From Girardia tigrina (taxonomy: Eukaryota): a DNA stretch of 53,348 nt. Below the pieces are notes generated by a model. The model made no database searches, was not told the origin of the DNA, and saw nothing but the letters and a program-made list of their open reading frames with translations. The number at the start of each line of letters is the position of its first letter. The first letter of the stretch is position 1. This document shows positions 714 to 43,900 of the stretch, one piece after another. The stretch lies in contig MQRK01243661.1 in assembly GCA_001938485.1 (NCBI GenBank), positions 62,001 to 115,348 of the forward strand. Reading direction: 5' to 3'. Position numbers and translations under genes: made by a program.

Positions 714-2020
714 CTTCTTTTTGACCTTAGCCGTTGGGCCGTGGGTGCAATTATAAACAAGGTACAATTATAAACAAGCCTTCGCCACATCTTTCTACTT
801 ATAGCTTCTTTTCTCAGAAATTCCATACTGAGTCCAGTCCATTATTTTAAATCGTCCATCCATTGCCTCTTTGATCTTCCTCTTGGACTTTCTCCTTCCA
901 CTCTTCCCTCAATCATAACCTTTGCTAATGCTTGTTTTCTTATTTGATGACCGTAAAATTTCAGCTTCCTTCTCTTGATGATCTCTTCTATTGATTCCGG
1001 TCTTTTACCTAGTATTTCTGTCATTCTCCTCCAAACAAAGTCATTTATCTTCTTTTCTTTCCACATGATCTTCAGCATTCTCCTGTAGCACTTCATTTCA
1101 AAAGCTTTAAGCCTATTCATACTCTTTTGATTTATTGCCCAACTCTCGCATCCATAGAGGAGTGCCCAGACAACAGCCTTAGTGATCTTCAATCTGCTCT
1201 TGAGATGGATTTCTTTGAGGTTAAAAACTGTGATAAGCTTAATCATTGCGCTTGTTGATATACCAATCCGGCTTCTGATTTCTTCTGCGCTTCCCCCATT
1301 CTCTGTGATAGTAGAGCCTAAATATTTGAAACTCCTTACTGGTTCCAGCTTCTCCCCTTCAATGAAAATCTCCAGTTTAACCTCGTTGTTATGGTTTCCT
1401 GAAACCATTACTTTGCTTTTTTGTCTGTTGATTTCCATTCCGAAATTGTTTGACGCTTTGTGTAATCTGTTCGCGAGTTCCTGAATCTCTGCCTCATCTT
1501 TGCCGATTAGGTCTATGTCCTCAGCAAATCGTAGGTTGGTTATTCTTGTTCCTCCGCAGCTTATTCCAACATCGTCTAGATCTTCTATTGCTTCCATAAC
1601 AATTCTCTCAAGAAAAAGGTTGAACAGTGTTGGTGAAAGAATGCAACCTTGTCTTACTCTTACTGATGATTTAAACCAGTCGCTAAATTGCTCACTTGTC
1701 AACACTTTTATCTTTGCATCTTCGTAAAGGCTCTTAATAATATTCGTGATATGTTTTCCTATGTTGTGTTTATTTATTGTGTGCCATAATGCTTTGTGCT
1801 ACACCCTGTCAAAAGCTTCTTTGAAATCTATAAAGTTATGACATTATTCGTTTGTGGTCTCTTGTTTTCTCACAAATTAGTCTTAAGTTGGTTATCTGCT
1901 CCGTAGTGCTGCGGTCTCTTCTGAAGCCTGCCTGCATCTTACTAAGAACTTGCTCCACTTTCGGTGTGATTCTTCTTTGTAAGACTTTCAGCATAACCTT
2001 TGATGCGTGACTGATCAAAT
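712..2020 (-). mobile_element. 5'-truncated, inactivated RTE-clade non-LTR retrotransposon (reverse transcriptase and C-terminal region)
   Basis: Motifs LISHASKVMLKVL, QAGFRRDRST, FIDFKEAFDRV, VRQGCILSP.LFN, RFAEDIDL (degenerate FADD), FKYLGS, LLYGCESW, RRKLKFYGH, GRPxxxW-like tail. A frameshift near 1836 and an in-frame stop inactivate it. It lies antisense to the PTP exons, probably inside an upstream PTP intron. Confidence 0.92.
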
Positions 2021-2022
2021 AA

Positions 2023-2098
2023 ATATATATATATATATATATATATATNNNNNNNNNNNNNNNNNNNNNNNNNNNNNNNNNNNNNNNNNNNNNNNNNN

Positions 2099-2144
<46 letters not shown>
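2023..2144. repeat. (TA)n microsatellite containing an assembly gap
   Basis: TA arrays either side of an N run; another TA array at about 2328-2362. Confidence 0.9.
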
Positions 2145-2147
<3 letters not shown>

Positions 2148-2324
2148 CTAAACGTAGTATATATAATTGTGCACAACCCCGTAAAATATTTGTGAAATGA
2201 ATAATCTAATTTAAACCAAACATCTGACCATTTCATATTTCTGGAAGGAAAGCTCATGTAAATGTACGAAGAAATTCGTCGCGGGGTCTATAATACAAGG
2301 ACAAACTATATCTAAAATTTAATA

Positions 2325-2364
<40 letters not shown>

Positions 2365-2654
2365 TTTGTGTGTGGAGTAATTCAATGGAAATTAAAATTT
2401 AAATAATCGAGGTGATTTATGAAATTGAAAATATATTTCTGTAAATCAAATTTTTGAAAAATTTATAATTGTCAACATTATTTTAATTGATGTGAAATAA
2501 AATCATAATGATCAGACCGTACTAGTCGCCATTTGAATATAATTCAGTAATCCTCAATCTAAATTCAGTTGTTCCTAGAACAAAATTTTAATGTTATTAT
2601 TCTCTTCAATACTATTTATAAGATTATAGAAAATCTTGATTTTTTAATTTATAG

Positions 2655-2868
2655 ACCGGACAAGAACATAGAGTCAACCACTTTTATTTTCATAGTTGGC
2701 CAGATCAAGGAATTCCAAACAGTAGTGAAGGTTTCTTGCATTTTATTACCCAAATACGTCAGACTTATCGACTCAACATTGCCAAACTTGGTTACGAGTC
2801 AGAAATGGATCAAAAAATCCCTCCTCCTCCTATTGTTGTACATTGCAGTGCTGGTATTGGTAGAACTG
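2655..2868 (+). CDS. PTPN9: Penultimate coding exon of a classical non-receptor protein tyrosine phosphatase, PTPN9/PTP-MEG2-like (WPD loop and catalytic P-loop)
   Basis: Acceptor ttatag|ACC and donor G|gtaaga. Translation TGQEHRVNHFYFHSWPDQGIP...PPPIVVHCSAGIGRT(G) has an intact WPD loop and HCSAGxGRTG. The insert before PPIVVHC resembles MEG2. The ortholog name is by recognition only. Confidence 0.88.
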
Positions 2869-4916
2869 GTAAGAATACTTTATTTTATTTATTCTACTTT
2901 TATGTTTATCAAATTCATTTGTGAATATAATATTTATGTACATTGACTTCAAGAATATTGATTATTTGGAATATTTAATTTGTGTATGAATTTTGTGTGC
3001 TGATTTGAGCAAATTGAAATTAGAATTGTGATTCTCCCACCCGTTTTTGAAAATTGATGCTTTATTGTATTTGCGATAACTGAACTTCAAACAGAATCGA
3101 CATTTTTTAAATTAATGAAAAAATTTAAATTTAAAGTAATAATGAAATAAAGACATTGTATAGGTTTGAATTAACTTTACAATTAGTTGCTATAATTAAA
3201 TGAAATATTTTTTCAAATAAATTAAAATGTAATTTTTTATAATGTAAAGTTTTTAAATTTTCATAACATGAATTTTATAGGAAATTTAAATAAAATAATG
3301 CTCAAGTTAAAAATGCAAATTGATTAATTTTATAAAGAATATCTTAATTTTAAATTTTGTAAATGATATTAAAAGGACAGAAATTTATTTGAATATTTAT
3401 TATTTAAAAAATTTAGGCCACTAATTAGAATAGTGACGAAAATGGAAGGATTTTCCAAGAGTTGTCAATGAGATTACTCTAATTGTAATGATAATAAATA
3501 TTTTAACGATAAATGTCTCTGCGAAGGACAGGCTCCCTCTTAAAATTTTTGAAACAATTAATTTTAATAAAAAAGTTCTAAAATAAGGAAATATTTAAAA
3601 TCAAAAGTTTTTTAAGCAATTATTATTAAAAAATATACCTTAATTAATTTTAAAAAGTTATTTTCAGAAATAATCAAATTAAAAACTTAAATAATCGAGT
3701 AAAAACTTGAAATGAAATTAATTGGGAAATAATGGATTTTTAAATAATTGATTTACAAGAAATATATAAAGACAAGGATAATTATGTTTGTACTAATTTA
3801 AAAAGTTATTCTAAAAAAATAAAATAATGAACTTTGTTGCCAGAGATGTAAAGTAAAAAACAACAGATAATTTTAAATTCAGTTTGAAATTCTGCAAATT
3901 AAAGATTTGACAAATACTTAATTCTAAACAGTTTTCGTAAAAAAATAAAAATTAAAACTTTTATCATTAATGTATCATAATAATAATAAAATTTTGAATA
4001 CTGTAAATTATTTTTTGTATTTGAAATTTGTATTGTATTTAAAATAATTGTAGGTAATGAAATGCTTTTAAATTGTATTTAAAATAATTGTAGGTACAAA
4101 ATGCTTTTAAACTGAAATATTGATAATAAATAAAACGTTAAAATCTTTTATTAATTAAAAACGATTTACAAATAAAAGAAAATAACATTAAACTAATTCT
4201 AAAATAATAAAAAATCATTTTTGTTAATTTAGTAAAAATATGACTACAATAAATTATGTTGGTTTTAATTTAAATTAAGTTGCATAAAATAGTGGAATGT
4301 AAATTTTCAAAATAAAGAGAATAAAAAAATTTCAATTTTAAAATAGCTTATCAGTATTTATAGTTCCATATTTTTATATAAAAATCTGGTAAAAAAAACG
4401 AAGAAAAGTTCCTCACGAAAAATTGTTTGAATAATTGTTATTTGTGATAGAAATAAAATTTGGTGTTAATGAATCTTAATTTCGATCAAGAACCCAACAG
4501 TCTCAATGATCCTTCCATGCATATATACAGTCTTCAAATGTAGTCAAATAATTATTTTTTTGCTGTTGTTTCCAAAGTAAAATTATCATTAATAAATTAG
4601 TCACTATTATATTTTATCCGAGTCAAAGGTCAAACTGAATCAACATGATGCAACTTGCAGAATCTGTAAGCTTGCTTAGAGTATTATACAGATTATATTG
4701 AATTTAAGTATCATGTTTTATGACGATAAAGCTTTAGTTTATGTAATCACTAGACAATATTTTCATTAATTTTTTATATATTTCTGTCAATGACAAAGTA
4801 AATTCAAGAAATTCATTTCTTAAATGTTTTTATGGATCAAGAGAGTAGATAAAACACAATAATAGATATAATGAACGGAGAAATTATCTGTCCTAGGTTA
4901 TTGTAATATTTTATAC

Positions 4917-6462
4917 CGGGGATGGCGAACCTTTTTTGATGTCCTTGCCACAAAGTCATAAAAGTTCTTTTTATAATAAGTAAGGTGCCACATTAAAATA
5001 TTCTTCGAAATGTTAGCGGGGTGAAACTATACCTAAGTATAATTACATAAACAAATAAAAACAATTTTTTATTAATCAACGTTTTACAAAAAGCAATATG
5101 TGCTGGAAACAAATTCACGTTAAAAACAATTTTTTAATATGATTTTTGTTGCTGATGATAACGATTTAATATCTGGTTCATATTTAGTTAATTTTAACAA
5201 TACGCATGCAGAGCTCGACTCATCCGTTATTCTATTCCTATATTTATTTTTTATAAAATTTAATTATGAAAATAGAAATTCACATGCCAACATCGAGGAA
5301 AATATTGATAAAATTGTATTTGGTTATATTTTTTAACAATTAAACGTGTCAGAAATTGAATTCTATGTAGTTAGAATTTCATCTTCTGCAATTTTATTTT
5401 TTTATCCCATAATCAATAATTTCTAAATCATTTCTTAAATCAACAAATTTTGGTTATACATGGTACTTGACCGAAATTCCACTAATTCATTAAAATTTAA
5501 CCTTTCAAGGACTTTTAAATTTAATTTTTCAAATGGTATTATATCCGGATATAAGATAAATTTTAAAGTTTCTTCAAATTCTTTAAACTACGTAAATCTT
5601 GCAGAAAATTCCTGAATCAGGCATTGAATTGTCAATGAAAATTCTTTCGTTAATGACTCTTTATTTGGCTTTTCGAGACACTCACTTTCAGAAAATAATT
5701 TTTTGTATTCGGAAAATATTTATTTGAATTTGAAAGAATATCAATATTGAAAATCTGTAATTTGACTTCGAACACTTTGATTAATTCAAACATTATAATG
5801 GCTGTTTTATTAACACCTTGTAGTTATATATATTTATTTCATTTAAGTGAGAGCATAAATCAGTGAAAAAATATAACTTTGCTACATCCAATAACTTATT
5901 GTATTGGTCAATAATGTTCTTATTATTTAGAAATAATCTTATTTCGTCCAAACAATCTAAAAATCTTTGCAAAACATTTCTGCGACCTAACCAACGTACA
6001 AAAGTAAGCTATTGTACGAAGAGTTTACTTCGTTTAACAATTCTTGGAATTTTCTTTTATTTAGTGCTCGTGCTAATATAAAATTGATTAATTTTGTTAC
6101 TCAAACTCAAAACATCATCATACATTTTAAACCTGTTTCGGCACATAACGCTGATTTGAGCGGTGCGACGGCAACAACATACAAAAGGGCGAAACTGGAT
6201 ACGCAAAAAATTATCTAATGTGCATCTTTATATACTTAGAGAGAATTCATGAGATATTTTAATAATAAAATGTATAATTTGACGGTTCTAGTTAACATAC
6301 TAAGGTATTAAGTACTACAAATTTATATCATAAATTATAAATTAAGTGTACATTAAAAAATTTTAATTCATTTCTATCAAAAAAGATAACTTAAATGAAA
6401 ATAACTTTCTTTTTGTGCTTGCCATCAAAATTTTCAAACGTGCCATTGGTTCGCCACCCCTG
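4917..6462 (-). mobile_element. Internally deleted hAT element (Charlie/SPIN, GTF2IRD2/EPM2AIP1-like transposase remnant)
   Basis: TIRs cggggatggcgaacc / ggttcgccacccctg; degenerate 8-bp flanks ttttatac / ttatatat. Minus-strand remnants VRWLGRRNVLQRF...LYFFTDLCSHLNE and C-terminal KNRITDE...LLKLTKYEPDIKSL. Confidence 0.8.
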
Positions 6463-7895: not shown

Positions 7896-7951
7896 AATTA
7901 AGATTATATTTAACCAATATTTTGGATTTTTACATGTAAATTATTGTTTAG

Positions 7952-8304
7952 GTACTTATATTGTTACTGAAATCTGTACAAAAAGTCTCACTGATTGTGG
8001 AAGATTTAATCTTCATCAAGCAATGTTGAAAATTCGTAGTCAACGATATAAATGTGTCCAGAATGCGTACCAATATTTATTTTGTCGGAATACAATTATC
8101 GATTATGCAAAATTTATGGGATATTTAAATTGTCAAACTGGTGTTTCGGAAGACGTTGAACAATCCGAGGAAGAAGAGGAAGAAGAAGTTGAAGAGATAG
8201 ATGAAATTGATGAAATTGTGGAAGAAACTGATGAGATAGACGAAGTAATAGAAAATGAGACAGTTGAAGTAGTGTGTGATTCAACTAAATCCTCGTGTGA
8301 ATGA
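7952..8304 (+). CDS. PTPN9: Terminal coding exon of the PTPN9-like phosphatase (Q-loop and acidic tail)
   Basis: Acceptor tttag|GT completes the phase-1 Gly codon. Reads TYIVTEICTKSL...MLKIRSQRYKCVQNAYQYLFC (the R.QR...VQ...QY.F Q-loop), then an E/D-rich tail and TGA at 8302-8304. AATAAA at 8401. Confidence 0.88.
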
Positions 8305-21059: not shown

Positions 21060-21810
21060 ACATCGGCGATGGCGGTCTTCGAGAAGAGCAACGCCGGAGA
21101 AAGTGAACCAGTCCTCATTAGGGCTACAATTGTTGATTGTAACTGGGAATTTATTTACAGCAGCGATATCAATCGATCAATCAATCAGTCGATGTGCGCA
21201 CCAAGCGCGCCCGTGTCGCGATACGAGCGCGCACAGCGGTCTGCGAGCCGGGCCAGGCGGTCTAGGTCGACCGCGGCGACAATCGAGTAAAGCGAGCGAT
21301 CGATCGACTGGCGGACGACGGGAACCTGCACGGACTGGAGGCGCGAGCACGCGATCCGGTAGTTTCTGGCCGACAATCGATCGATTGTCGCTATTTGAAG
21401 CCGGCGGCGACGACGATGGCGAAGGAGCAGCGGGAGAACTGATCGATTCGTCCTCGTCGTCGTCGTTACTAATCTCGATGATCGATGATTTCTCGGATCG
21501 ATCCTATCGAACGATTGATTGTCGTCGATTATCGGTTGATAGAGCGTCGGTAAATCGATTATATTGTTGCGACTATCGATTAAAGGCGGCGGCGGCGGTA
21601 TTTCATCGTCGATTCATCGATTCATAATTGAATCGACACGCGGGATAAACTATTTTAAACCGCGTCGGGAAGAGCGTCTCCAAATTCGGTATCCCGTCAA
21701 TCGAATATCGATAATTATCGATCGATTTTCGATAACCGATCAATACTTGTCGATTTTCGTTGATATAATCTTGTCCTTTGTTGTACGCCGATACAATTCT
21801 CTCTGTCATT
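21060..21810 (-). pseudogene. GC-rich island with a decayed reading frame of unknown identity
   Basis: Abrupt GC/CpG rise with many ATCGAT/CGATCG words. The minus frame from ATG 21809 continues through three stops into protein-like SSIIEISNDDDEDESISSPAAPSPSSSPP. Confidence 0.35.
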
Positions 21811-22292: not shown

Positions 22293-22787
22293 AGTACATA
22301 TATATACTGACTGACAAACACCCTAATACACTGACACTGCTGTTTGTATATTAATATGTACAAAATATGTGAATACGTCGCTCAATGTCTAACCTAATAT
22401 AGCGATGGCATCTCATTTAGGCTATGTTAATATAGAGACAGGATGATAGAAACCCATTTATTTTTAAGTGTGTATGTGTGATGTAGTTTTGCTCAATTAT
22501 TTGAATAGTATGTCGTTATTTCAGTGTCATTACTTGAAAACATTTGGATTTTTATTGCTAAATATGGCTTATAATTGGAATATTTTTGAGGGGGAAGCGA
22601 TAAATTTTGGGGTGGAATGCTTCCCCCCGTACAGGACTGGAAGAAACATTGTTTCGTTCAAATTATTTCAACAATTCAGATTTAATGTATTTATAATTCA
22701 TTTTCACAAAAGTCAATCAATTTTTGTATTTCCACCAACTTTCAACAATATTATTTAAACAACTTACAAATTTCTGTATTTTTCCAG

Positions 22788-23990
22788 ACCTTGGTTTTCA
22801 GCAATCAATCCCTCATAGAACCATTCCTAACATTCATGAATGGTCTTCATCTTAGTATCAAATTCACCACAGAATTGGAAGTAGGTAATAAATTTCCCTT
22901 TCTTTACATTCTTCTCCTTAGGATGAATGGAGACTATAAAATTGAATTAATCAGAAAAACAGCAGGTACAGGTCTTTACACAACACCACAGTGTTTTTGT
23001 GAGGACAAATATAGAGAGGGTATGATAAAAGGCATTGTTCATAGAGTTTGGAATTTGTCGTCCGGTTTTGAAATTGCAAATTAGGATTTAAATATTCTTA
23101 GAAGGTGCTTGAGGGACAATAAGGGACAAATAAGCAAATAGAACACAATATGAAGATAAAATTAGACAAATTCTTGACAGATGTAAGAGTTAAGAAACAA
23201 TTAAAAGAAGAAAATACTTAAGAATACAAACAAATTATTAAAATACCATATTCTGAAGGATTTAGAGCATTTAAGAAGAGTATTTGTAGAGCAATAAGTA
23301 GTGCTAAAGTAATCTCTGTCATATCCAAAGTTCAAAGTTTCCTCTCAAACAAATCGAAAACAGTTTGTGGTTTGCAAGTTAATCTGGTATAGAAATTTAA
23401 TTGTCACGGGTGTCAAAACTCGTACATCGGAGATATCTCCTGTACGGCCAGGGATCTGCTGTGAGGCCAGGCGGGTATACTTCTACGTAGTATCCCTGAG
23501 AAACTAGATTGGGTTCGATTCCGTCTCTAGGCTAAAGTGCCCGAAAGCTAGCCGATTATTGCGGAAAAGCCGGCAATGTATCGTATTCAGGAAAGTGCTT
23601 GCAATCCATTCACTGAACTACGCTTTATAATCTCGATGTGAACGCTGTGGGGAGTAGTGACCCCGCTGTCGATGGTTGGATTGCATCGTAATGATCTCGG
23701 ATGAATCGATCCTGGTGAATGGTGTTGTAATGACGTCGTTGCATTTTCGAACAGGCGGAACTAAGGCATGGATTCCAACATTGGGGGAGTGCCCGTTCAG
23801 AACTATCAGCGTCCCAGGCCTCCTAAAAAGTCTCAGGCTTAATACCGTTAAAGGAGTAGAGGTGCAGGTGCACATCGTAGAGACAAATCGTCATCTCAAA
23901 ACCCGGATTAGCGAGCACTCGCATATAAGTCAATCGAGTTAGGTCCTTGATCATTGATTATGTTGTAAGGATAGAACCTCATCTATTTCA
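22788..23990 (+). mobile_element. Penelope-like element remnant (RT C-terminus plus GIY-YIG endonuclease), interrupted by a 438-nt insert
   Basis: FLTFMNGLHLSIKFTTELE..KFPFL..L, RK...TGLY, GIVHRV motifs. The GIY-YIG domain V*KFNCHGCQNSYIG|...|ETNRHLKTRISEH is split at 23434-23871. Confidence 0.85.
23434..23871 (+). ncRNA. Structured non-coding insert (SINE-like or retrocopied structured RNA), identity unresolved
   Basis: Flanked by acatcggaga / acatcgtaga; Pol III B-box GGTTCGATTCC at 23512-23522; several long-range complementary segments (see findings). Confidence 0.45.
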
Positions 23991-23995
23991 AACAC

Positions 23996-24486
23996 TTGAA
24001 CGAGAACAATGACAGAAATGATGACAGGAGGTCACAAATCAGACGAATAAAAAATGGAGAGCAAGTAAAGGACAGAAATGAGGTCCCTCCAGAAAACCAA
24101 AACACTCACAAGGATGAAGACAATATACTGGAAGAAAGTTCAACGGACGAGGAGGATGAAGAGATTATGACAAAAATGTTAAGCCACATGCAATCAAAGT
24201 GGGCGATAGAGTAATGATTGACATACCAGAATATGTACAAGATGCAGTAACGAAGCTAAGAAGACCGTATAAAGGTCCATTCAAAGTTATCAAAGTAACT
24301 CCAACTAATATAAAAGCAATATGGGTAAATGAGCCGATGAAGAAGCCTGTTTATGTTCACACAAACAAATGCAAACCGATACCCCTAGAAACACCAAATG
24401 ATCGAAAGGTAAAACGAAAGGAAAGGATGACAAAGCAAACAAAGGGTTCAGCATCAACTGTCAATGGCGATACGAATACAAAATAG
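23996..24486 (+). mobile_element. Ty3/Gypsy integrase C-terminal remnant (GPY/F domain)
   Basis: RDYDKNVKPHAIKVGDRV...KLRRPYKGPFKV...VHTNKCKP. Confidence 0.75.
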
Positions 24487-24497
24487 ATAATGAGAAT

Positions 24498-26027
24498 ATG
24501 ACGAATGAAGGAAGCTCACAGTATATAGAAAATGTCTTCAAAGAAATGAAGAGGCGAAAAGGACCAGTGACGAGAGAGTGCAATTTACGAAATAGACAAG
24601 TCAACATGCTACAAAATTCGTCACGAGGCACTTATGAATTATATGACCAATATGGACAGTATGGGTTAGTCCACTTGATGAAGCCAACGGCATCTCCACC
24701 AATGATACCAGCACAAAATACCGAGGACGGTATTTATTCGGAACCGATAGAGACAGCACGAGTGCCTGCAACAGTAATGCCACAGAACATATACCCGTAC
24801 GGAAGAGTAATCAACCCTGTCGAGATAGAGAACGGCCATCGAAATGAAACCAGAGAGTAATGGAAAACGAGAAAACGAAACAATGCCGAGAGATGATGCA
24901 AGAAAGCATTGGATATAAGCTTGAAGTTGTTTGTACCTATATCATCCGCCTGGTTATTCATTCTAACAGTCATGATAATACTAGGGTCGACAAAGGTAAT
25001 CAATATAGTGGTCAAAAATGGAAGGGACTTGAAACTAGGTCTCACCATGCTACGTTTCAACAGATATGAGAGCAGTAACGAAGTAAAATTTTGCCACATG
25101 AAATCGAGTGATAATACTTATTGCGAACGAGAGCAGAGCAAGAATGACACGCTAGTATTTGAATGGCCAATAACTATCAATATCGCAACTATAAAGAAGA
25201 CTCACGGAGATGATCTCAATAAATGGGAATTAACCGATGTTGAGGGATACAAAATAAATCAGCATGGAGACTACAGGATCAACATAGATTGTTTACAAAC
25301 AATATAACGAGAAATGGTGGAATTTACGCATGTGAAAGAATATGACCAAGTACAAAAAATCGAGGTCGATATAAAAATTTATGAGCAAAAGATACAGTTT
25401 CATACATTATTACGAGAAGGCGAAAATGTCAGAATAGTATATCGCTCAATACCCTTCGGAACAACAATGATGATGACATCACAGCACTCAAATACGACGG
25501 TGCATCGATTCAATAATAGAACTAGTTCAGAACATATAATAATGCTCTATAATAAAATGTTGGAGTCCAATAATCCATATAAAGACCTTGTAAAAACAAA
25601 CGGGAGATATGAAGTCTATCAAATAGAAAGATCACGAACAGGAAAGGAACACACACGACTATTAAAACCAAAAGAGTGGACAGAAGGAGTGGAAGATGAG
25701 ATATATCAATTATTTGAAACAAGGCTTCAAACGATAAAAAATCAAGAAGTACAAGAACAAGATATCTACGAGAATCGAATTCGAACTTTCAGAAATTTCC
25801 GGTTAGATTGGAATCGACGACATCAAAAAATCAAAGAGACAAAGAATCATGATAAAGTAATAATGATGGCTACAAATTACCGCAAAGGGAATATAGTGAT
25901 TTGGAAAGAAAAGACGGGAGGAAGATACGGATCATCTGCAACCTTAACACCCGAGTATATAAATAAATTCCCAATGCAGGTAAGTGTAAAAGAACGATCC
26001 CAAGAATATAAAATTCTTTTATCGTGA
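24498..26027 (+). pseudogene. Third ORF downstream of Gypsy integrase, possibly env-like; disrupted by three stops
   Basis: ORFs 24498, 24909 and 25314 share one frame (510 codons). Contains a hydrophobic segment LFVPISSAWLFILTVMIILGS, cysteines and N-X-T sequons (NDT, NTT). Confidence 0.45.
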
Positions 26028-26034
26028 GTGTAAA

Positions 26035-26250
26035 AAATAAAGTAAAAAAACTGAGGTTATTACACCTACACTTAAAAAAATTGCAATTTTGGACAAATTA
26101 AAATCGAATTCTGGAAAATCGATCAAAGAACTTTCAAACGAATTTAACAATTCTGAAGAAATGATTGAAAAGTTCACTAAAAATGAGACTGAAATTCGTC
26201 GACAATTTATCGAATTTATTAACAAAACCGACAATCAATCATTAAAAATC
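26035..26250 (+). mobile_element. CENP-B/Tigger N-terminal psq-type HTH fragment
   Basis: KKTEVITPTLKKIAILDKLKSNSGKSIKELSNEFNNSEEMIEKFTKNETEI fits the psq HTH pattern. Confidence 0.5.
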
Positions 26251-26624
26251 GAATTAATTGGGTCAATTTTTGTTGTAAGAACTAAACATTTTTTGGGAAT
26301 TGAATTTGAATTTGTGAATTATTTGGTCGAAATTATAATTGTTATTTTGATTGATTAAATCAAGAACAAAAAAAATTATTTGTGTACGTGATTTTTTATG
26401 CGTTTTGTTTAGTCGAATTAAAAAATAATAGGTTCTGCGCGAATTTTTTTTGTTTGCTAAACAATCAAAATAAATAAATCAGTTGAGCAAAAATTTGTTT
26501 TCATGGCCTTTTTCTATGAATTTTAATGAAGATTTCTTTTTACTATTATAATCAAAATTCATAAATCTAATTACGAAAACAATATATTCTGACTAAATTC
26601 TGAGTAAAAATATCTCCCGAAAAA

Positions 26625-26945
26625 CGTGAAACGCGAACAATCCTCGGAATCGCTATTGACACTAATTCCATAATTATTAATCAAAATCAAATTTATCTTG
26701 AGCAAAATGTTGACAAAATATTCGAAACGAGAGATATTAAATGAAATGAAGGGTTACGGTCTTACTAATTTGAGGCAAATTGGAATATCGGGGCAAATGC
26801 ACGGTGTTTTGTTGGGGAATGACGACAAGGACGAGTCGCGCTACAATCGGCGCTCGAAATCGATTACCTTGATGGATCAGAGATGTAATGCCGATGGTTT
26901 CATTGAATCTCTACCGAAAATGACGTCGTATTTGGTTATAGAAAT
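26625..26945 (+). pseudogene. SHPK: Sedoheptulokinase-like (FGGY carbohydrate kinase) gene fragment
   Basis: TILGIAIDTNS (degenerate LGIDLGTTS), IGISGQMHGVLL, ITLMDQRCNADGFIESLP (cf. LVTWQDGRC...FLASLP). Deletions and a frameshift; abuts the Gypsy remnant. Confidence 0.65.
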
Positions 26946-27099
26946 GCTCGGTAACAGACAATATTTGAGGGAGGGCACAGAGATTTGGTCTCGTATCACC
27001 GAAAAACAACGAGATGATTTTTTATTTGTCTCCTCGACCTGACGATCGCTCCCCGCCACCGGCGCGCAACAGCCACAAAATCATAAAACTGAAAAGACA

Positions 27100-29710
27100 G
27101 ACACCTCGAGGTTGAGAAATAATGGTGATTAGAGACAACCCATCAGATGAGGACAGACTAAGAAGAATAATTAATATATTTAACAAGCAAATTGACGGGC
27201 AATTAATGAAGATTCTAGCAAAGTATAAATCAGTATTCATGGCTAATAAGTGAGATACAGGGAACACATCATTGACAAAACACAGAATAGAAACATACGG
27301 GGATCCAAATCTAGTAAAACCTTCTCAGAAACCAAAACACTTTGAGGACAAATTGCATGATGTTATTAAAAATTGCGAATAAAATGACATAATCGAAAAT
27401 TGTAGCTCACCATAGAATTACCCATTAGTATGTGTGTGGAAGAAGGAAAAACAAGATATTCGAGTGTGTGTAGACTTCCGTCAGTTGAATAGAATTACCA
27501 GCGTTTCCAATGCCAAATCTAGACGACATGCTGAACACACTGAACGGTGCGCAATATTTTAGTACAATTGATCTTGGAAACGCGTAATACCAAGTCGAGT
27601 TGGAAGAAGAATCAAAAATTAAAACAGCATTCTCAACAAAGAACGGACAGTTTTGTTTCAAAAGAATGTCGTTATGATAATAGCAGCCCCCAGCAACTTT
27701 CCAAGAGCTAATAGTCAAAGTCCTAAGAGATTTAAACTGGAAAGAGGCAGCAGTATATTAGGACGATATTTTGGTCTTTGCAAAAAATAAAAATGAGCAT
27801 ATGCAACGAATAGAACATGTACTGGAAAAAATTAAGGAAGTATGTTTAAGAATTAACCCAGAAAAGTGCCAAATTTTAACAGAAAGAACAAAATTTTAGG
27901 ATATATTGTCAGTAAGAATGATATAGAAACTGATCAAACAAAGATTGAGGCCATTAAAAAATTTCAAAACCCATCATGTATCAAACATTTGAGAAGTTTC
28001 TTGGGTCTAACAAATTACAACAGAAAATTTTTAAAAGATTACGCAAAATACTCAAAAGTATTGGAGGGTTTGTGTGGTAAAAATAAAGACAAGAATATAT
28101 TATGGACTGAAGAATGCGAGGAAGCTTTTCGAAAATTGAAAGAAAAAATGATTGACACCCCGATACTGGCGTATCCTGATTTGAGAAGGAGTTTATACTG
28201 GAAAAAATTGAAAGAAAAAATGATTGACACCCCGATACTGGCGTATCCTGATTTGAGGAGTTTATACTGGATACGGATGCAAGCTCCGATACAATCGTGG
28301 CAGTATTATCACAGAAGGACACGTATGGTAGAGAGAAAGTGATCGCGTATGGATCACATAAAATGAACATATATGAGCTTGGATATTGTGTTACAAGGAA
28401 AGAGTTGCTGACATTTTATTATTTTACGCAAAATTTTAAACACTTTTTATACGGTAAAAGATTTTTACTAAGAACTGATCATAAAGCTATTACCTTCATA
28501 CTCAATACGAAAAACCCAATAACACCGCAATTTCAAAAGTAGATAAATTTTCTTAGTAGTCTGGATATGAGAATGGAATATCGGAAAGGAGGAAACACTC
28601 AAATGCAGATGCAATGTCGAGAAATTCTTGTAAATTATGTAGTCAGTGTCAAACAATGCACGAAGAAGCTAAGAAAGGAAAGATTAAAACACGAATCTTG
28701 GCTTTAGACGAAGAATTAAAAGGGTTCAAGTGGCAGAAAGATAATGACGAAATAAATCAGATCAGAGAAGATATTAGAATGGGAAGAACAAAGAAATGGA
28801 TAATGAAAGACAATATTGTGACAACAATAGATAATAAACATTGGATTCTGAGAACCACAAGGACAGAATTCGTGGAAGACGCTCACAAGATTCTATGCCA
28901 TGCTGGTAGTAAAAAGGTTTATAACTATTTGAAAGATGATTTTGATATGGTTAGTATGAGAGATAATTAAGGAAATTGCAAAATGTTGCATAAACTGTCA
29001 AAAGAGAAAAACTTTAACCACAAAAACGAAAGAAAGTTTTATTAAACAATTTGCTGATGAACCATTTCAAAAGCTGTATATGGATTTTTGCGGACCGTTT
29101 AAAAGGACTCTAAAGGGATATCAATATGTACTAGCTATAATTGATCAATTTAGCAGGTATATAAGTCTAAATGCATCAAGATGAGAAAACTGCTCGGAAG
29201 GTACTACTGGACAGATTGATTTGGAAATTCGGACCACCAAAAGAGATCCATGTGGATACAGGTAAAGCATTCGAATCGACACTCTCCAAAGACGCACTGA
29301 AGAGATTTAAAGCAGAAATAATTTACTCCAGTCCTTATCATTACAATACCAATGGCATCATTGAAAGACAATTTAGAACTATTAGAGATGCTATGACATA
29401 AGGATAAAAGATCAAGCCCACAAAGATTGGACGGAAAATTTACCAGAAGTATAATTTATGATGAACAGCACAATTTAAGAGTTGTAATAAGAATGAAAAG
29501 AGCGAAAATACGATAGAGACAAAACGAATATTTCATACGGGGGATATTGTTGATAAAAAAAGAAAATGCTACAATGGAAGAAGATCGATATATGGGTCCA
29601 GCCACAGTAAAAACCAGAAGACATGAAAGAAGTTATGAATTGGAGCTAGAAGATGGTAGAATTTCGATAAGAAATGTGGAATGGCTAAAGCCATTTAAAT
29701 CGAGGGGGGG
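27100..29710 (+). mobile_element. Ty3/Gypsy LTR retrotransposon pol pseudogene (RT, RNase H, integrase) ending at a polypurine tract
   Basis: HRIET, PLVCVWKKEKQDIRVCVDFRQLN, FSTIDLGNA, Y*DDILVF, LRSFLGLTNYNRKF, LDTDAS, VIAYGS, LRTDHKAI, H..LCHAG...C..CQK, MDFCGPF, GPPKEIHVDTG, NGIIERQFRT, YMGP. PPT gagggggg at 29702-29710 followed by TG. Many stops and frameshifts. Confidence 0.93.
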
Positions 29711-30744
29711 TGAGGAATATTTGGTGTACGGATGTTTTTGTGTAGTTTTTGCATGTTTAAATGTTGTATGTTGATTTGGGATTGTGCCTCTCCTAACCAG
29801 ATGGATTATCAATATTTAATTTATTATAATCTGAAACTAATTTATTTAAATTTAATATTCAAATTTTTAATTTTTATTATTGTAACTTTTAATAATTTTA
29901 TTGATTTTATTTTTGTAATTTTTTAAATAATTAAAATCAAATTAATGTTTAAAAATGAATATAAAAATATTTTATTATAGCCAATAAAATTAAATATTTT
30001 TAAATAAAATAATTTTCTCAAGTATAGTTCAGATTATAATGGGAGATATTGAAAATTGAGTGATGGATCTAAGTGAAAGTAATACTATTGGTCATCATAA
30101 AGATGATAAGAAATGTGAATGTAATAAATATTCTGTCAAATGTGAGTTCTCTTAACAGTATCTATTTTTATGAATATCAATAATCATTATTACAGTGGTT
30201 GGCATAAATATAAAAAGATTGTTCAAAAAAGGATTTTTAATAAATTTTTAAAATAAGTTAAACTAAAAATACGTACTCCTTCAATTTTTAGAGAGAATAA
30301 ATTTATTAAAAAATATTTTAAAAATAGTAAAATTAAAAATAAATATTTAAAAAAATTAGCGTTAGTATATATATTTGTGCGCATAGTATATATAAATGTG
30401 CACACAGTATATATATTTATTAAAATTATGCAAAGTTCAGAGATTGTCTTAAATTATGATGAGGACAAAGACACTGAACTGACAGTTGTTAAACCTCAGG
30501 ATGCTTCGCTGGCAAGATTGAAAACGCATTTATTATCTTAAACTTGCTTAATACTTATTTATTTCTTTTTTACATCTTCACTCTCAGACTAGTCATAGTG
30601 TAGCATTTTTTTCACATGTTCAGCGCCTCTATTTTGCTCTTTTAAACAAGCTGGATTCTAGCTTAACAAATACAAGGTAGATAACTCATGTACAGCATAA
30701 TATAATAACATAACATATTATAACATAATACAGCATAATAGAGT

Positions 30745-37900: not shown

Positions 37901-40900
37901 AACCGATCGCATTTCAAAGTGATCGACATTTGGGAAGGTTTCTTTTTAAAAGACTTTGAAAGAGAATCGATGGCGGATGTATATGAGTCAAGAGCCTGAT
38001 AATTGTAATTACAGTCATGTAATACAGCTGCCGCTAAACGATATAATCTAGCTGCATTAGACCAAACTAAAGCCACAAGATTGTCTTCAACAGTATTATC
38101 AAAGGCTTCTGATCTCGTCCATTTAGTAAGTAAATCTATATTTGGTAATACTGTCTGTCTGCACCAATCTTTAAGCTGATTTTCCTAATGTTACATATTG
38201 TAAAACGGATTTAAAAAGATATGTATAAATATTAAAAAACTTTTTAATGAAAAGCTTTTATAAAAAAAATTTAGTTATGGAAGTTATTTAATGAAAAATT
38301 TGAGTACATTTAAATTAATCTAAATTTGTTCAAAATATCACAGACCTTGACGACTTGTAATACGAATAAATATTGGATGATAAGGCAGCTAAGAAAATGA
38401 AATATACTTTGATTTTATGTAAAAAACAAATATATTAATAAAAAATATTCACTCCTTTTAAAAGATATTTTAATCAGTGCTCCGAAATGTCGAAGTGTCG
38501 ATACTATCATAAATATTTTTGGCCAAATCCCTACTAAAAATGCATTCTTGATCGTTGCGTTAATAACATCAAAAAAATTGTATTGAAATTTCGAAAAACA
38601 GTATCACAAGTCCATTTGTTTCCATCATTGATATAATTATTAATGTTAATTTGACAATGAATTAGCATTTTTTCATCAGTTTTTTTTCAGTTTGATTGCC
38701 AAATATCTTGGCTATTGAACACATCAATGAAAGATTATTGATAACTTGTGTTAATAATCAATATTTTAAAACTTGGAAAAGGAAGAAATTAGAACTATAA
38801 TGAAGTACGAGTTCCTATGCGGAACCTTAGCATTAGAAACCATGCGAAACATCAAAAGTGTATTCAAGTGTATTAGGTTCGTAATTAAAATTGGAAGTCA
38901 TAATTTTGCAAACTTTATTTCTACTACAATTTTCATTATTGAAACAAATCTATGAGGAACAATATTTCAGTTACATAATTCAGATCTAAAAATTCTAAAT
39001 ATAAATAATAATATCGATGTATAAATATATATGTTATTTTCTTCAATTTTGCATAAATCTTATTTTGTTTCTGTTTTATTAATTTTTTACAATGCTTATA
39101 AATATAGATCTTTAAAAATATTTTAATGGACATATCCTGTAAAAATTCAATTCCTAAATAATTTTTCTTTAATTTTAAATTATTTTTTTAATAAAATTTT
39201 CCATTGACAATTAAATTCAATAACATTATGATTTTTATTTTAGACTTGATTTTAAAATATTCAATAAATTATTTTTTAATAAAAACTTTCCGTATACAAT
39301 TAAATTCGATAAACATTCTAATTTTATTTTAAATAGTGTTGCAAAATATATCAAAATCTTCTTTACAATATTCTTTAACTTCGAAGATGATATTTCAATT
39401 GTGAATTTTTAAAACTTAATTTTTATAAAAATTTGTCCCAATTTAATAAAAATATTATCATTACTCTAAATTTTTTTTACAAAACTTATTTCATTTTAAT
39501 TAGTAACATACTATCTGTGAACTATAATTTTTACAAAAATTACTTCAATTTAATTAGTAGAAATATTACCTATAAAATATATTTTTTATGCAATCTTATT
39601 TATTTTAATTAGTAAAAAATATTATCTATAAACTTAAATTTTTTATTTAAAAAATTATTTCATTTTAATTATTCGAACATTATTTTTAATTTATCTAAAA
39701 TATAAATATGATTTTTAATTTAAAAATATCAAAAATTTAAAGTTCACCAAAAGGAACCCCAACAAAGTGTATAAACAACGTTTTGATAGAAAAAATTCAA
39801 TTCTGAAGGTAACATAAAAATGGTCTTTAGAGAATTTTTATTCAAAAAGCCTCAACAAGCTGTCGCTCAAATGCAAAAGTGTGTCGATAATATGCGTGCA
39901 TACTTTGATGAAAGACATAAATATTTGTATTGCTAAGTTATCAATAAACTTTAATTTAAGGTCTACGAATTTCATACTTGACGAATTAATAACACTGAAA
40001 TAGCTTTATAGTCCTAAAATGTATCTTAATGAAATAAAGTGCCATTGTGAAGTTTTCTTGGAATTTAATTTTATAACATTAAAGATATGATTTTTTTAAT
40101 TTTTCATTCTTTTTATTAGCTTACTTCGGCATATATATATATCCATGGAATTTAGAAACCTATTTTTGAAGGCCTTCTACTCAATCAATTTTCTTCAATC
40201 TTTGCACACTTACTCATTCTCGATGACAATAAATGATTATGTAAAAATTTGATCGAAAAAAACTTTTTAAGACCCCAAAATGGAAAAAAGCGGAAAATTC
40301 AGAGTTCACAAATAATATTAATTGCAAGATATCTACTTATAAATTATAAGTAGATTATATTAACTTTTATTGTGTTTGGTTTCATTAAAATTTTTTAAAT
40401 TTTAAAAACTTTGTTGGCAAAGTAGATTTCTGTCTGCATAAAGAATGGATATAAAAAAATTAATTTTTTGATTTATTTTAATTAATTTTAATTTTTGTCA
40501 TCCAAAAATTTTATTAAAAAAATTATGATATGAGGTCTACTTCAAATAAGATTTAAAATCATAATTCGTTTTTAATCATATAAGCAACATTGGATAGCTA
40601 AAAGAACTTCCATAAGCCCATTACAAATAACACTATGAATTGGAATTTAAGGATTATTAAAGAAAGAAAATATAGAATTTAGAATTTCAATATTATAAAA
40701 TGGAACAAGTCCAAATAACTCATAAATTTATTGGATAGGTGTAGGGATAGAATAATCACAAGCTCGGATATGAATAATATTGTTCTTATGTACTTAAATT
40801 GAAATCTCGCAATTAATATCAAAACGGTACATAGATAAATTCATGTCTTACTTGATCTTCGGAATCCTTATAAAGAATTGACTTCTGTTGATAAAGAGTA

Positions 40901-43900
40901 ACAATAGAAGCCACAAGAAAATTTAGCAATATTGACATTCCTCGTTGAATGATGTTTAACTTCGATCTTAGTAGCGATAACTGAGACAATTTATGACCCA
41001 AAGAAACCAAGTAGACCACAGCCCGATACCATCCATAGTGAATTTTGTCATTGATATTGGTCATCTTTCTTTTCTTTTCCGACATAAGAACAGACTTAAA
41101 AAGGAAAATTGCTTCCATAAATTGATCAGTGCGCTCCCCATATCGAAAACCGAGTACTGTCTTGTCAATATCAGAGAGAGAAACTGGAGAATTATTCTGC
41201 TGTGGAGACTGATCCCCACCGCAAAGATCAATGTGCAAATTCAGAAAAGCTGAGAAAAAAGCATAATAGAACTCGTGTTCCTTTAATAGCTTTGCCTCGT
41301 CCAACAGAGAAAGTTCATCATCAATAAGCGCAACCATGAATCCTGATTTGATTACCTCCATCAACTCATCAGCTGTGGCAACCAATATATTGATTTCTAT
41401 GCATCGCCTCATATAAAACGCCATCAATGAATCCGAGATATTATTGGTTTTTGAAGGTTGATTGGATTGGTTATTATTATGAACTGATGTTGTGTTATCA
41501 GAAGTTGTGTTTCCAGGAGACTGAAACAAGAGAGAGTGATACCCTGTGTGACTCGGACGAAGACACAGGCCACCCCTCGAATCCAGTTTGATTGCCTGTT
41601 CGAGAATCTCTCTAGTATTTCTTTTGGCACAATAATCAAATAATCGACTACCAATTAATGTGAGGTCGTTTTCAATTGGGACAAAATTTGGTTGTGACGA
41701 AAAATCGACAATTTCACGTTTAAAATCATCAAGTTCGAATTTAGTAACTCCGGGTGTTGATTCGAAGTCTTGTTGGGGTTTAAAATTGTCGAGAGTGGTT
41801 TGATCAACTTCCAAATACAATAGGCACATCATTAATATCGCCTTAGTGACGAGTTCTTTGTGTTTACCAGTCTTGATTAAGAGATTGATACAGTTCTTCA
41901 ATAATCGAAATATCTCAATAAAATAGAACTCATTGTCGGCCAATTTATTATCAAGTAACTCTTTATTGAACTGGCTTGAGGTTAGTTTTGTCTTTCCACG
42001 TTTCTCTCGTGCCCGGTGCCACTGATTCACTCGGTTTTCTGCCATTCGATAACACAATATTGCAACAGGAATTATGAATGGATTAGAGTCGTGATTGGCT
42101 GGCATATTGACTCGGTTATTTTTTTTGTATTGATCTTTTTCCCAAATAGTCGTCAAATCGTACAATTTAACTGTAGTACTATCAGCTTCTTTAAATAACC
42201 AATATGTGTGGCCTTCTTTAGTGGCGTTTGTCGATAAGAAGTGGGAGAGATTTTTGGCGATAGATTTAACTTCTTGCTCATTGAAATCTGCTAAACGAGG
42301 AATATCGGAAGTTTGGAGGATTTCATATTCTCGCATCACAATTCCCTGGTCATGGTAACACATTGCGATTTCTGGTACCTCATTGAGCATGTTTTCGAGC
42401 CACATATCGATTCCTGTTAGAATATTAATGGGTTCATGACACGGGCTCAAACGCAAGCTTATGCATGGATGACGTTTCGTTCCGAAAATTGATAAATCAG
42501 AACCAACAACGAAACTTAGATCTTCAAGCTTCCAGTCCACTAGGTTGAGAAAATCTTCATTTTTAGAATCGAAACGATGAGAAGAATTGGAAAACTTTGT
42601 TGGAGATTCCATTTTAAATTGCTCAATCGGTCTTTTTACAACTGACAATTGAGTAGAGGAGTTTGGCTCGAGTTCCTCATTCGACATTTCAATACTCGGT
42701 TGACTAACACTGTTTATTGATAATAAATGACAAGTACTCAGACGAAAACCCAAACCTATGATAGAGGAATTTGGCGTATAAATCTCTCATTGAGAGTGAG
42801 GCGCGGCTCAAATCTGGTTTCGTTAACTGAAAACTTTCTTGTTTGATAAAATTGCGTAACCAATCCCAGTCGGCCTAAATAATTAAATTAAGACCCCGAA
42901 GAAATGTTTACAAAGACAAGATGGCAAAAAAGATATCGATGAATTATGATTGATAATCTGTGTTTTTCACCAATTATTACTAAATAATTATATATATTGA
43001 ATGAAATGGAATGAGAACGATTTTTAATCTTATATTTGACTCAACATCTGATGATGCGCCAAAGCAACACCATTTCGATTTATCACATGTTCGTCAGTTT
43101 GTGCTATTTCACGACGATAGTTTAAAATAAAGATTTAATAAGTAAAATATTTTTTAATATATCAATATTAATAAGTAAAAAAAACGCGGCTGATTGGACA
43201 GGTCAAAATCCCCAGACCGAAATCTCTTGAACCAGTGAGCTACTGTCGTTTGCGTACAGGCTTGAGTAGGATACACACTGTTGATATTTCCAACTGCCTG
43301 ACGTGTTGTGGCTCCACGGTGGAACTCATATTTCATTAAAATTCTGATTTCACTGATTTCCATTNNNNNNNNNNNNNNNNNNNNNNNNNNNNNNNNNNNN
43401 NNNNNNNNNNNNNNNNNNNNNNNNNNNNNNNNNNNNNNNNNNNNNATATCTGTCAAGAAATACCTTATTTATTTTCATACGATAGTTCAAAGTTAAGTTA
43501 TACGCGATTGAAATGTAAGGTGTGAAGTTTGACCCGTTTCATATCGAACAACCTAATATAAAGCTCAAAAACCGCCATTATTTTTCGACCAACCTAATAG
43601 TTCGATATTGCAACATTTGATGATGATTTATTGCCACATTTCTACTTGACGAAATGGAAAAATATTTCTACGAATCCGAACCAAATTATTGTCGTGTCAT
43701 TATTGGGTTATTGTAAAAGAGATCAATCTATCAATAAATCGATATCCGGGCAATTGTTACATCTGTCTCGTGTGTAAAGGTGAAATCTTGATGTTCTAAA
43801 TTCGAACTAGTAATATACCTAAAGTAAAGAATTGAATGTAAAGAAAAGAGGTAAACAATTCTGATTGGTCCATGTGTTGAATACAAAACATTTCGTCATC

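Follow-up and report, generated by a model that had tools for sequence, protein, structure and literature searches.

A short non-coding retroposon family with a predicted HDV-like ribozyme head and a LINE-like tail, found at Penelope-like endonuclease sites in Girardia tigrina

Closest described systems

The closest known systems are the R2 SIDEs and the trypanosome elements NARTc and RIME. R2 SIDEs are short and non-coding, and possess an HDV-like ribozyme at the 5' end, a 3' end derived from a LINE and the target of that LINE; the central part of R2Dwi_SIDE (529 bp) is unrelated to the LINE, and the elements are freed from a co-transcript (PMC3414825). SIDEs are located in 28S rDNA and use R2 or R1. 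An HDV-like ribozyme is also common to NARTc, RIME and SIDER with L1Tc and ingi, L1Tc being cut at C1 (PMC3185411, PMC4035085). L1Tc has in addition an APE domain, C-terminal C2H2 fingers and a conserved pattern upstream of its insertion site (PMC5814959), as well as RNase H and a poly(A) tail. The bipartite RTE derivatives Bov-A, RTESINE and WALLSI3 lack coding sequence and are made up of the two ends, 5' and 3', of an RTE-group LINE, and RTE is listed among the clades with 5' ribozymes (PMC5786205). APE LINEs of the Tx1 and R1 clades, some of which target transposons, concentrate their insertions in multicopy sequence; the three main target-specific groups given there are early-branched, Tx1 and R1, and do not include RTE (PMC4640811). 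PMC13635239 and PMC3774820 are also cited among the known relatives.

The insert described here lies in a window of 53,348 nucleotides, the whole stretch of G. tigrina DNA that was analysed. We consider it highly probable that it is a copy of a non-coding retroposon family with a predicted HDV-like self-cleaving ribozyme at its 5' end, and that this family probably owes its mobility to an RTE-related LINE in the same genome. The family agrees with R2 SIDEs in its short non-coding unit, ribozyme head, LINE-like 3' end, shared target and unrelated central part, and the same release from a co-transcript is proposed for it. Unlike SIDEs, it is associated with an APE-RT-C2H2 LINE and a degenerate genome-wide motif, and it comprises several subfamilies and at least hundreds of copies. 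The partner LINE resembles L1Tc in its APE domain, C-terminal fingers and conserved upstream pattern, but has neither a Pfam RNase H match nor a poly(A) tail, and its motif is different. As in the bipartite RTE elements, both ends are LINE-like and coding sequence is absent; unlike those elements, the family has no poly(A) or microsatellite tail, has a strong target motif, and has a partner LINE in a zinc-finger clade of its own. The concentration in multicopy sequence recalls the Tx1 and R1 LINEs, whereas here the specificity is partial, with most copies outside Penelope. A search of the open full-text literature by title and start of abstract returned no LINE or SINE aimed at Penelope endonuclease codons. 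The families may already be catalogued in Repbase or Dfam.

The insert and its family

The features at the locus are as follows.

22686..23433, + strand: 5' part of a degenerate Penelope-like element (end of the RT/HTH region, linker, start of the GIY-YIG endonuclease)
23409..23425, + strand: target motif RGTGW-N9-T^AC at the G-C-x-x-x-Y codons, with the cut following position 23423
23424..23433, + strand: target site duplication (TSD), 5' copy, from repeat comparison and the TSD survey of copies
23434..23448, + strand: duplication of element nt 5-19, private to the window copy (29 other copies align only from query position 16-18)
23449..23865, + strand: family unit, a 417-nt non-coding retroposon copy, from alignment to genomic copies
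23866..23871, + strand: last 6 nt of the element repeated in tandem, from alignment of copies
23872..23881, + strand: TSD, 3' copy, a 10-bp repeat with 1 mismatch to the 5' copy
23872..23992, + strand: 3' part of the Penelope-like GIY-YIG endonuclease, ended near 23992 by unrelated sequence

The original prediction, made from the window alone, had described 23434-23871 as a discrete insertion. The insertion is real: the 10-bp repeats 23424-23433 and 23872-23881 are present, and natural empty sites exist, reading YIGETNRHLKTRISEH at locus L106. The exact 34-nt empty site occurs 688 times in the same genome, and window positions 23188-23433 are 92-97 % identical to the three empty-site loci L106-L108. 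It was also correctly described as GC-richer than its surroundings (0.49, compared with 0.31 and 0.38 in the 500-nt flanks) and as devoid of a convincing open frame or poly(A), its longest ATG frame being 58 aa. The proposed extent has to be corrected, because the family unit covers 23449-23865 and the remainder consists of small copy-specific duplications. The one at the 5' end likely arose by a template slip via CAGG microhomology; the 6-nt duplication at the 3' end is also present in 2 of the 100 listed rows of 3'-end matches.

The Penelope-like 5' part contains several stops and frameshifts, and its protein neighbours in the Atlas carry PF26215 and RVT_1 in shares from a minority to a majority. 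The Pfam GIY-YIG model matched the equivalent region in locus L055 with E = 0.0048, which is below the curated cut-off. From the end of the Penelope remnant, at about 24000 to 29800 (+), decayed LTR-retrotransposon-like frames (RT, RNase H, integrase-like) were seen by eye.

The genome copy search proposed with the original prediction found many copies with common boundaries and TSDs of roughly 11 bp. The search covered the 1.43 Gb of the same genome in 255,254 contigs, and 40 of 2200 first-look candidates were scored; the copies found were 90-94 % identical to the insert and aligned from query position 16-18 to about 433. A TSD was present in 43 of 46 distinct full-length copies, its length varying from 7 to 15 bp and being 11 bp in 18 of them. 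Subfamily A alone occupies at least 226 genomic places, a lower bound counted with an exact pattern of 15 nt at the 3' end and any base but C after it. Subfamilies A, B, C and D differ in heads and bodies. In five copies the ATG frames did not exceed 81 aa, and in its absence of coding capacity, unit length and variable TSD the family agrees with SIDEs and bipartite non-autonomous LINEs. The suggested retrocopy of a cellular RNA gives way to a self-propagating family with at least four subfamilies, and the fallback idea of the original prediction, a ribozyme-like mobile RNA family, is supported.

Two other classes of element were considered and rejected. In a MITE the TSD length is fixed, whereas here it varies, and the ends of the element are not complementary in the alignments. 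Concerning a non-LTR retrozyme, the Rfam scans gave no hammerhead match.

One more head, E, whose element has a different 3' end, was encountered a single time among the heads compared. The short HDV-headed element of this family lies at L233:229-533 (G000:C230253), and also at L063:1178-1482; this 3' end is G-rich and its Rfam HDV match weak. The element shares a single duplicated target with a copy of subfamily B and a piece of a decayed LINE, the three being nested.

Contigs from two metatranscriptome runs of one study, and from two further runs that are presumed to be RNA, contain parts of the family and of the junction between tail and Penelope; such contigs are uninformative on the ends, strand or level of transcripts. 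An NCBIfam search and a bacterial promoter scan added nothing.

Predicted ribozyme head, body, tail and probable partner LINEs

The head and its predicted elements have the following coordinates.

23449..23543, + strand: predicted HDV-like ribozyme, first 95 nt of the element, from fold descriptor and covariation
5' of 23449, + strand: predicted cut
23449-23455 / 23492-23498, + strand: P1
23472-23478 / 23537-23543, + strand: P2
23479-23481 / 23489-23491, + strand: P3
23482-23488, + strand: L3
23483-23484 / 23499-23500, + strand: P1.1
23504-23508 / 23526-23530, + strand: P4
23532, + strand: C at the catalytic position
23512..23522, + strand: B-box/T-loop-like 11-mer in the variable P4 loop, unconserved between subfamilies

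The head can adopt the nested double pseudoknot of P1, P1.1, P2, P3 and P4. A structure descriptor, written after the fold had been seen and widened in its J4/2 length once the first version missed the LINE heads, matched the 53-kb window at one position, 23449, and matched none of 1000 dinucleotide-shuffled versions of the insert. It matched 20 of 30 subfamily A loci and 6 of 25 subfamily B loci, the misses being due to copy-specific mutations or to the strictness of the descriptor. When 15 heads from four subfamilies were compared, 94.4 % of the cells paired, compared to 16-51 % with the partners slid. Two-sided changes were found in 6 of 24 head pairs (four in P2, one in P3 and one in P1.1); this pair count was reached by 68 of 500 shuffles and the cell count by none, but as the changes are few subfamily-level events, the cells overstate them. 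L3 and J4/2 agree with the consensus line of Rfam RF02682, and the Rfam HDV models gave no match on the short element. The base of P4 is kept while its loop varies in length and sequence, with unrelated shorter or longer loops in C and D.

HDV-like ribozymes usually have a G1-U37 wobble at the cleavage site. Most copies of the family begin at the predicted cleavage base, and among 85 distinct heads the first base is C in 66, position 37 is G in 81, and the C at the catalytic position is retained in 69. As the heads begin with C and have G at position 37, the first pair is C-G and not the usual G-U; it was C1-G37 in 15 of 15 heads. Cleavage is predicted 5' of C1. In a related ribozyme, a C1-A39 mismatch has been termed a defect (PMC4035085). 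It could be argued that the ribozyme is vestigial, i.e. that the C1-G37 head of the same element no longer cuts and is kept as an internal promoter, as Pr77 in L1Tc, or as a protective 5' fold. The non-canonical first pair is in line with this, as is the double role of the 77 nt of L1Tc, which serve as both promoter and ribozyme (PMC3185411). We nevertheless find a vestige improbable, since P1.1, L3 and the C at the catalytic position are retained across four diverged subfamilies, and in L1Tc the ribozyme does cleave, at a site mapped to C1 (PMC3185411). Promoter activity may still reside inside the short element. A well-populated natural set of C1-G37 HDV-like ribozymes beside a canonical G1-U37 partner in one genome offers a comparison of cleavage-site tolerance.

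The original prediction had further pointed to a Pol III B-box at 23512-23522. The 11-mer is a perfect B-box-like match in subfamily A, and together with the SINE-like size and TSDs it could suggest a Pol III SINE with an unrecognised tRNA-like head. This we regard as very unlikely: the 11-mer lies in the P4 loop, which is variable, and cannot be called a conserved promoter, being changed in B and missing from C and D. In addition, ARAGORN detects no tRNA in the window and Rfam no small-RNA head.

Downstream of the head, the following parts were distinguished.

23544..23814, + strand: non-coding body
23553-23583, 23647-23666 and 23697-23714, + strand: body hairpins with two-sided changes (8 of 33 pairs)
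23601-23608 / 23677-23684, + strand: body helix, conserved without two-sided changes
23815..23865, + strand: structured 3' tail common to the partner LINEs (alignment above 200 of 200 shuffles)

The insert had been called highly structured. By folding energy, however, the insert does not differ from its shuffles (z = 0.00). For five whole copies z ranged from +0.99 to -1.39, and z-scores of whole copies and of parts gave no signal, so they neither support nor test a pseudoknot; conserved helices do exist, but they are other ones than those proposed. Every complementary segment listed earlier is indeed present in the sequence. The second stem (23446-23461 / 23807-23820) is copy-specific, as it crosses the duplication junction of the window copy. 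The bases of the presumed pseudoknot (23495-23501 / 23831-23837) belong to ribozyme P1/P1.1 and to the tail hairpin, with no gain over shuffled columns, and for the helix at 23600/23677 the core is conserved, whereas two-sided changes are lacking. Taken in family coordinates, three of the proposed long-range pairings were 78.2 % paired in 22 copies, compared to 77.8 % in shuffled columns, with 147 of 500 shuffles as high. An RNAalifold consensus recovered P2, P3 and P4, missed the tail stems and paired the 5' strand of P1 with a body segment, a long-range pairing that has a mismatch in subfamily D.

The tail consists of two short stems that enclose a small hairpin and a strand with the conserved sequence AATAC, with two-sided changes in 4 of 11 pairs, and it carries neither poly(A) nor a microsatellite. 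Several short copies lie directly behind another element with a similar tail and a common TSD, and following this element led to a LINE. This first LINE is about 3.9 kb long and has a single ORF with Pfam APE and RT domains and three C-terminal C2H2-like fingers (weak C2H2 matches), without a Pfam RNase H match and without poly(A); its nearest database protein, P0001, is 96 % identical over a 500-aa query. Its 5' end has a canonical G1-U37 HDV-like fold, matched by the descriptor in 20 of 25 loci, with sub-threshold Rfam HDV matches (E = 0.13-0.16). A second LINE family, with about 47 % protein identity to the first, has the same tail and an Rfam HDV match with E = 0.0015. The LINE heads score 27-32 bits against the Rfam HDV models, the gathering cut-offs being 44 and 50.

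The tails of the short elements and of the LINEs align above all 200 shuffles, and so do heads A, B, D and E when compared with the head of the second LINE (above 200 of 200 shuffles). With the head of the first LINE, A and B gave no significant alignment. The body showed no significant alignment to the 5' parts of the two LINE families. As the body matches neither LINE and heads A and B cannot be aligned to the first, the direct parent was not found. The LINE copies have 5' and 3' ends homologous to those of the short elements and share their target motif, and nested arrays of LINE and short copies occur at one site.

In a midpoint-rooted RT tree of 120 regions, which contained no labelled RTE, Ingi or Vingi references, 12 zinc-finger proteins formed a separate clade (SH-aLRT 100) from the 108 others. 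Among these others are a protein named craniofacial development protein 2 and many that carry PF20049, presumably both marks of RTE elements. The partner LINE is likely RTE-related, its nearest proteins being RTE-like. It suggests an RTE-related lineage that lacks a poly(A) tail, ends in three C2H2 fingers at the C-terminus and has a DNA target in two parts. Distant members of the zinc-finger clade occur in other samples (P0003-P0007, P0030, P0031, P0049, P0056, P0060; L169-L176). Metagenome relatives of the LINE were found at 44 loci with 25-35 % identity, and their 5' ends gave no match with the HDV descriptor. In LINE loci L082-L105 the first 330 nt contain a stop codon after the ribozyme, and there is no ATG ahead of the endonuclease domain, pointing to non-AUG initiation of translation.

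Most likely, the life cycle of the element resembles that of an R2 SIDE. The copies themselves show the target pattern, the TSDs and the ends in common with the LINE, and the biochemical steps would be as follows. Transcription would read through from flanking DNA, e.g. from a same-orientation Penelope unit around the copy. The ribozyme, as predicted from fold, covariation and the common start base, would cut 5' of C1 and release a unit-length RNA, whose 3' tail, being shared with the LINE, may be bound by the APE-RT-C2H2 protein of the LINE. Insertion at RGTGW-N9-T^AC with a duplication of about 11 bp, a pattern seen in the copies, is as expected of target-primed reverse transcription.

Target motif, Penelope-like elements and other features of the window

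The target motif was present at 14 of 22 distinct non-Penelope, non-nested sites, compared to 15 of 5198 TAY sites of the window; it was first read from 30 loci, 11 of the 14 strict matches come from that set, and one of the loci, L064, may be a diverged Penelope site. The motif recurs at B, D and LINE sites and was seen by eye at 3 of 6 distinct non-Penelope D sites. On held-out LINE ends only 4 of 46 had a usable TSD for the motif test. A bipartite target with a defined motif makes target reading by an APE LINE testable.

The motif overlaps the G-C-x-x-x-Y-I-G codons of the Penelope-like GIY-YIG endonuclease; many independent insertions are found there, always in sense orientation. Among the first 100 ends listed, by eye and with duplicates not removed, about 40 of the A ends and 23-33 of the LINE ends were on the Penelope site. 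Altogether about 25-40 % of the sampled insertions are at Penelope-like endonuclease sites. The motif has 86,947 sites genome-wide and the main Penelope family 5820 (up to two mismatches), so that Penelope supplies from about 7 % (main family) to 13 % (by eye, in the first 100 listed) of the motif sites. LINE ends number 2915 genome-wide, and 1110 were counted on the Penelope duplicate (up to one mismatch). By the ratio of 1110 to 5820, as much as about a fifth of the main Penelope family sites may be taken by LINE ends alone. The crude Penelope excess is two- to six-fold, a range derived from patterns of unequal stringency, with tandem arrays counted repeatedly and duplicates in the assembly.

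The copies at the Penelope site might be passengers, i.e. one old insertion amplified with Penelope, and about 40 of 100 listed A copies (by eye) do have a Penelope flank in common; some identical rows are assembly or segmental duplicates. Such an origin has little to recommend it, as subfamilies A, B, C and D and both LINE families (those with about 47 % protein identity) all occur at the site, more than one Penelope family is hit, and junctions and truncation lengths differ. The Penelope-site copies are also scattered over the tree, which has little resolution. The Penelope hits are independent, as the subfamilies and LINE families found there differ, and so do their junctions and truncation lengths. 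In L234 (G000:C15150) and L235 (G000:C184710), a single Penelope site contains tandem arrays of LINEs, full-length and truncated, from two or three families, with a TSD copy between neighbours.

The excess may reflect a longer preferred sequence, survival in expendable DNA, or selection. It is conceivable, though we would not favour it at present, that the LINE lineage and its ribozyme-headed satellites are hyperparasites of Penelope, which evolved to read the GIY-YIG codons, use Penelope transcription as R2 uses that of rDNA, and knock out the endonuclease while spreading. If the excess is selected, one retroelement would be keeping another in check through disruption of its endonuclease gene, and the R2-like mode of life would extend beyond rDNA.

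That the insert is a retroposed RNase P or MRP RNA, as a loose motif order in the window copy alone had suggested, can practically be dismissed: an Rfam search of the insert gave no match at E up to 5, the 30-mer bearing the CR-I-like motif AGGAAAGT occurs once in its own genome with up to one mismatch allowed and is thus private to this copy, and the proposed pairings are not above shuffles.

Elsewhere in the window, a 318-aa open frame at 842-1798 (-) appears by eye to be an RTE-like reverse transcriptase of a different family. A short open frame at 7897-8304 (+) recalls, as we take it, the C-terminus of a tyrosine phosphatase, and a 655-aa open frame at 40819-42786 (-) is reminiscent of EDRF1-like proteins. 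Positions 21060-21720 form a GC-rich, CpG-rich island with many ATCGAT words in AT-rich surroundings, which may be a promoter or another repeat.
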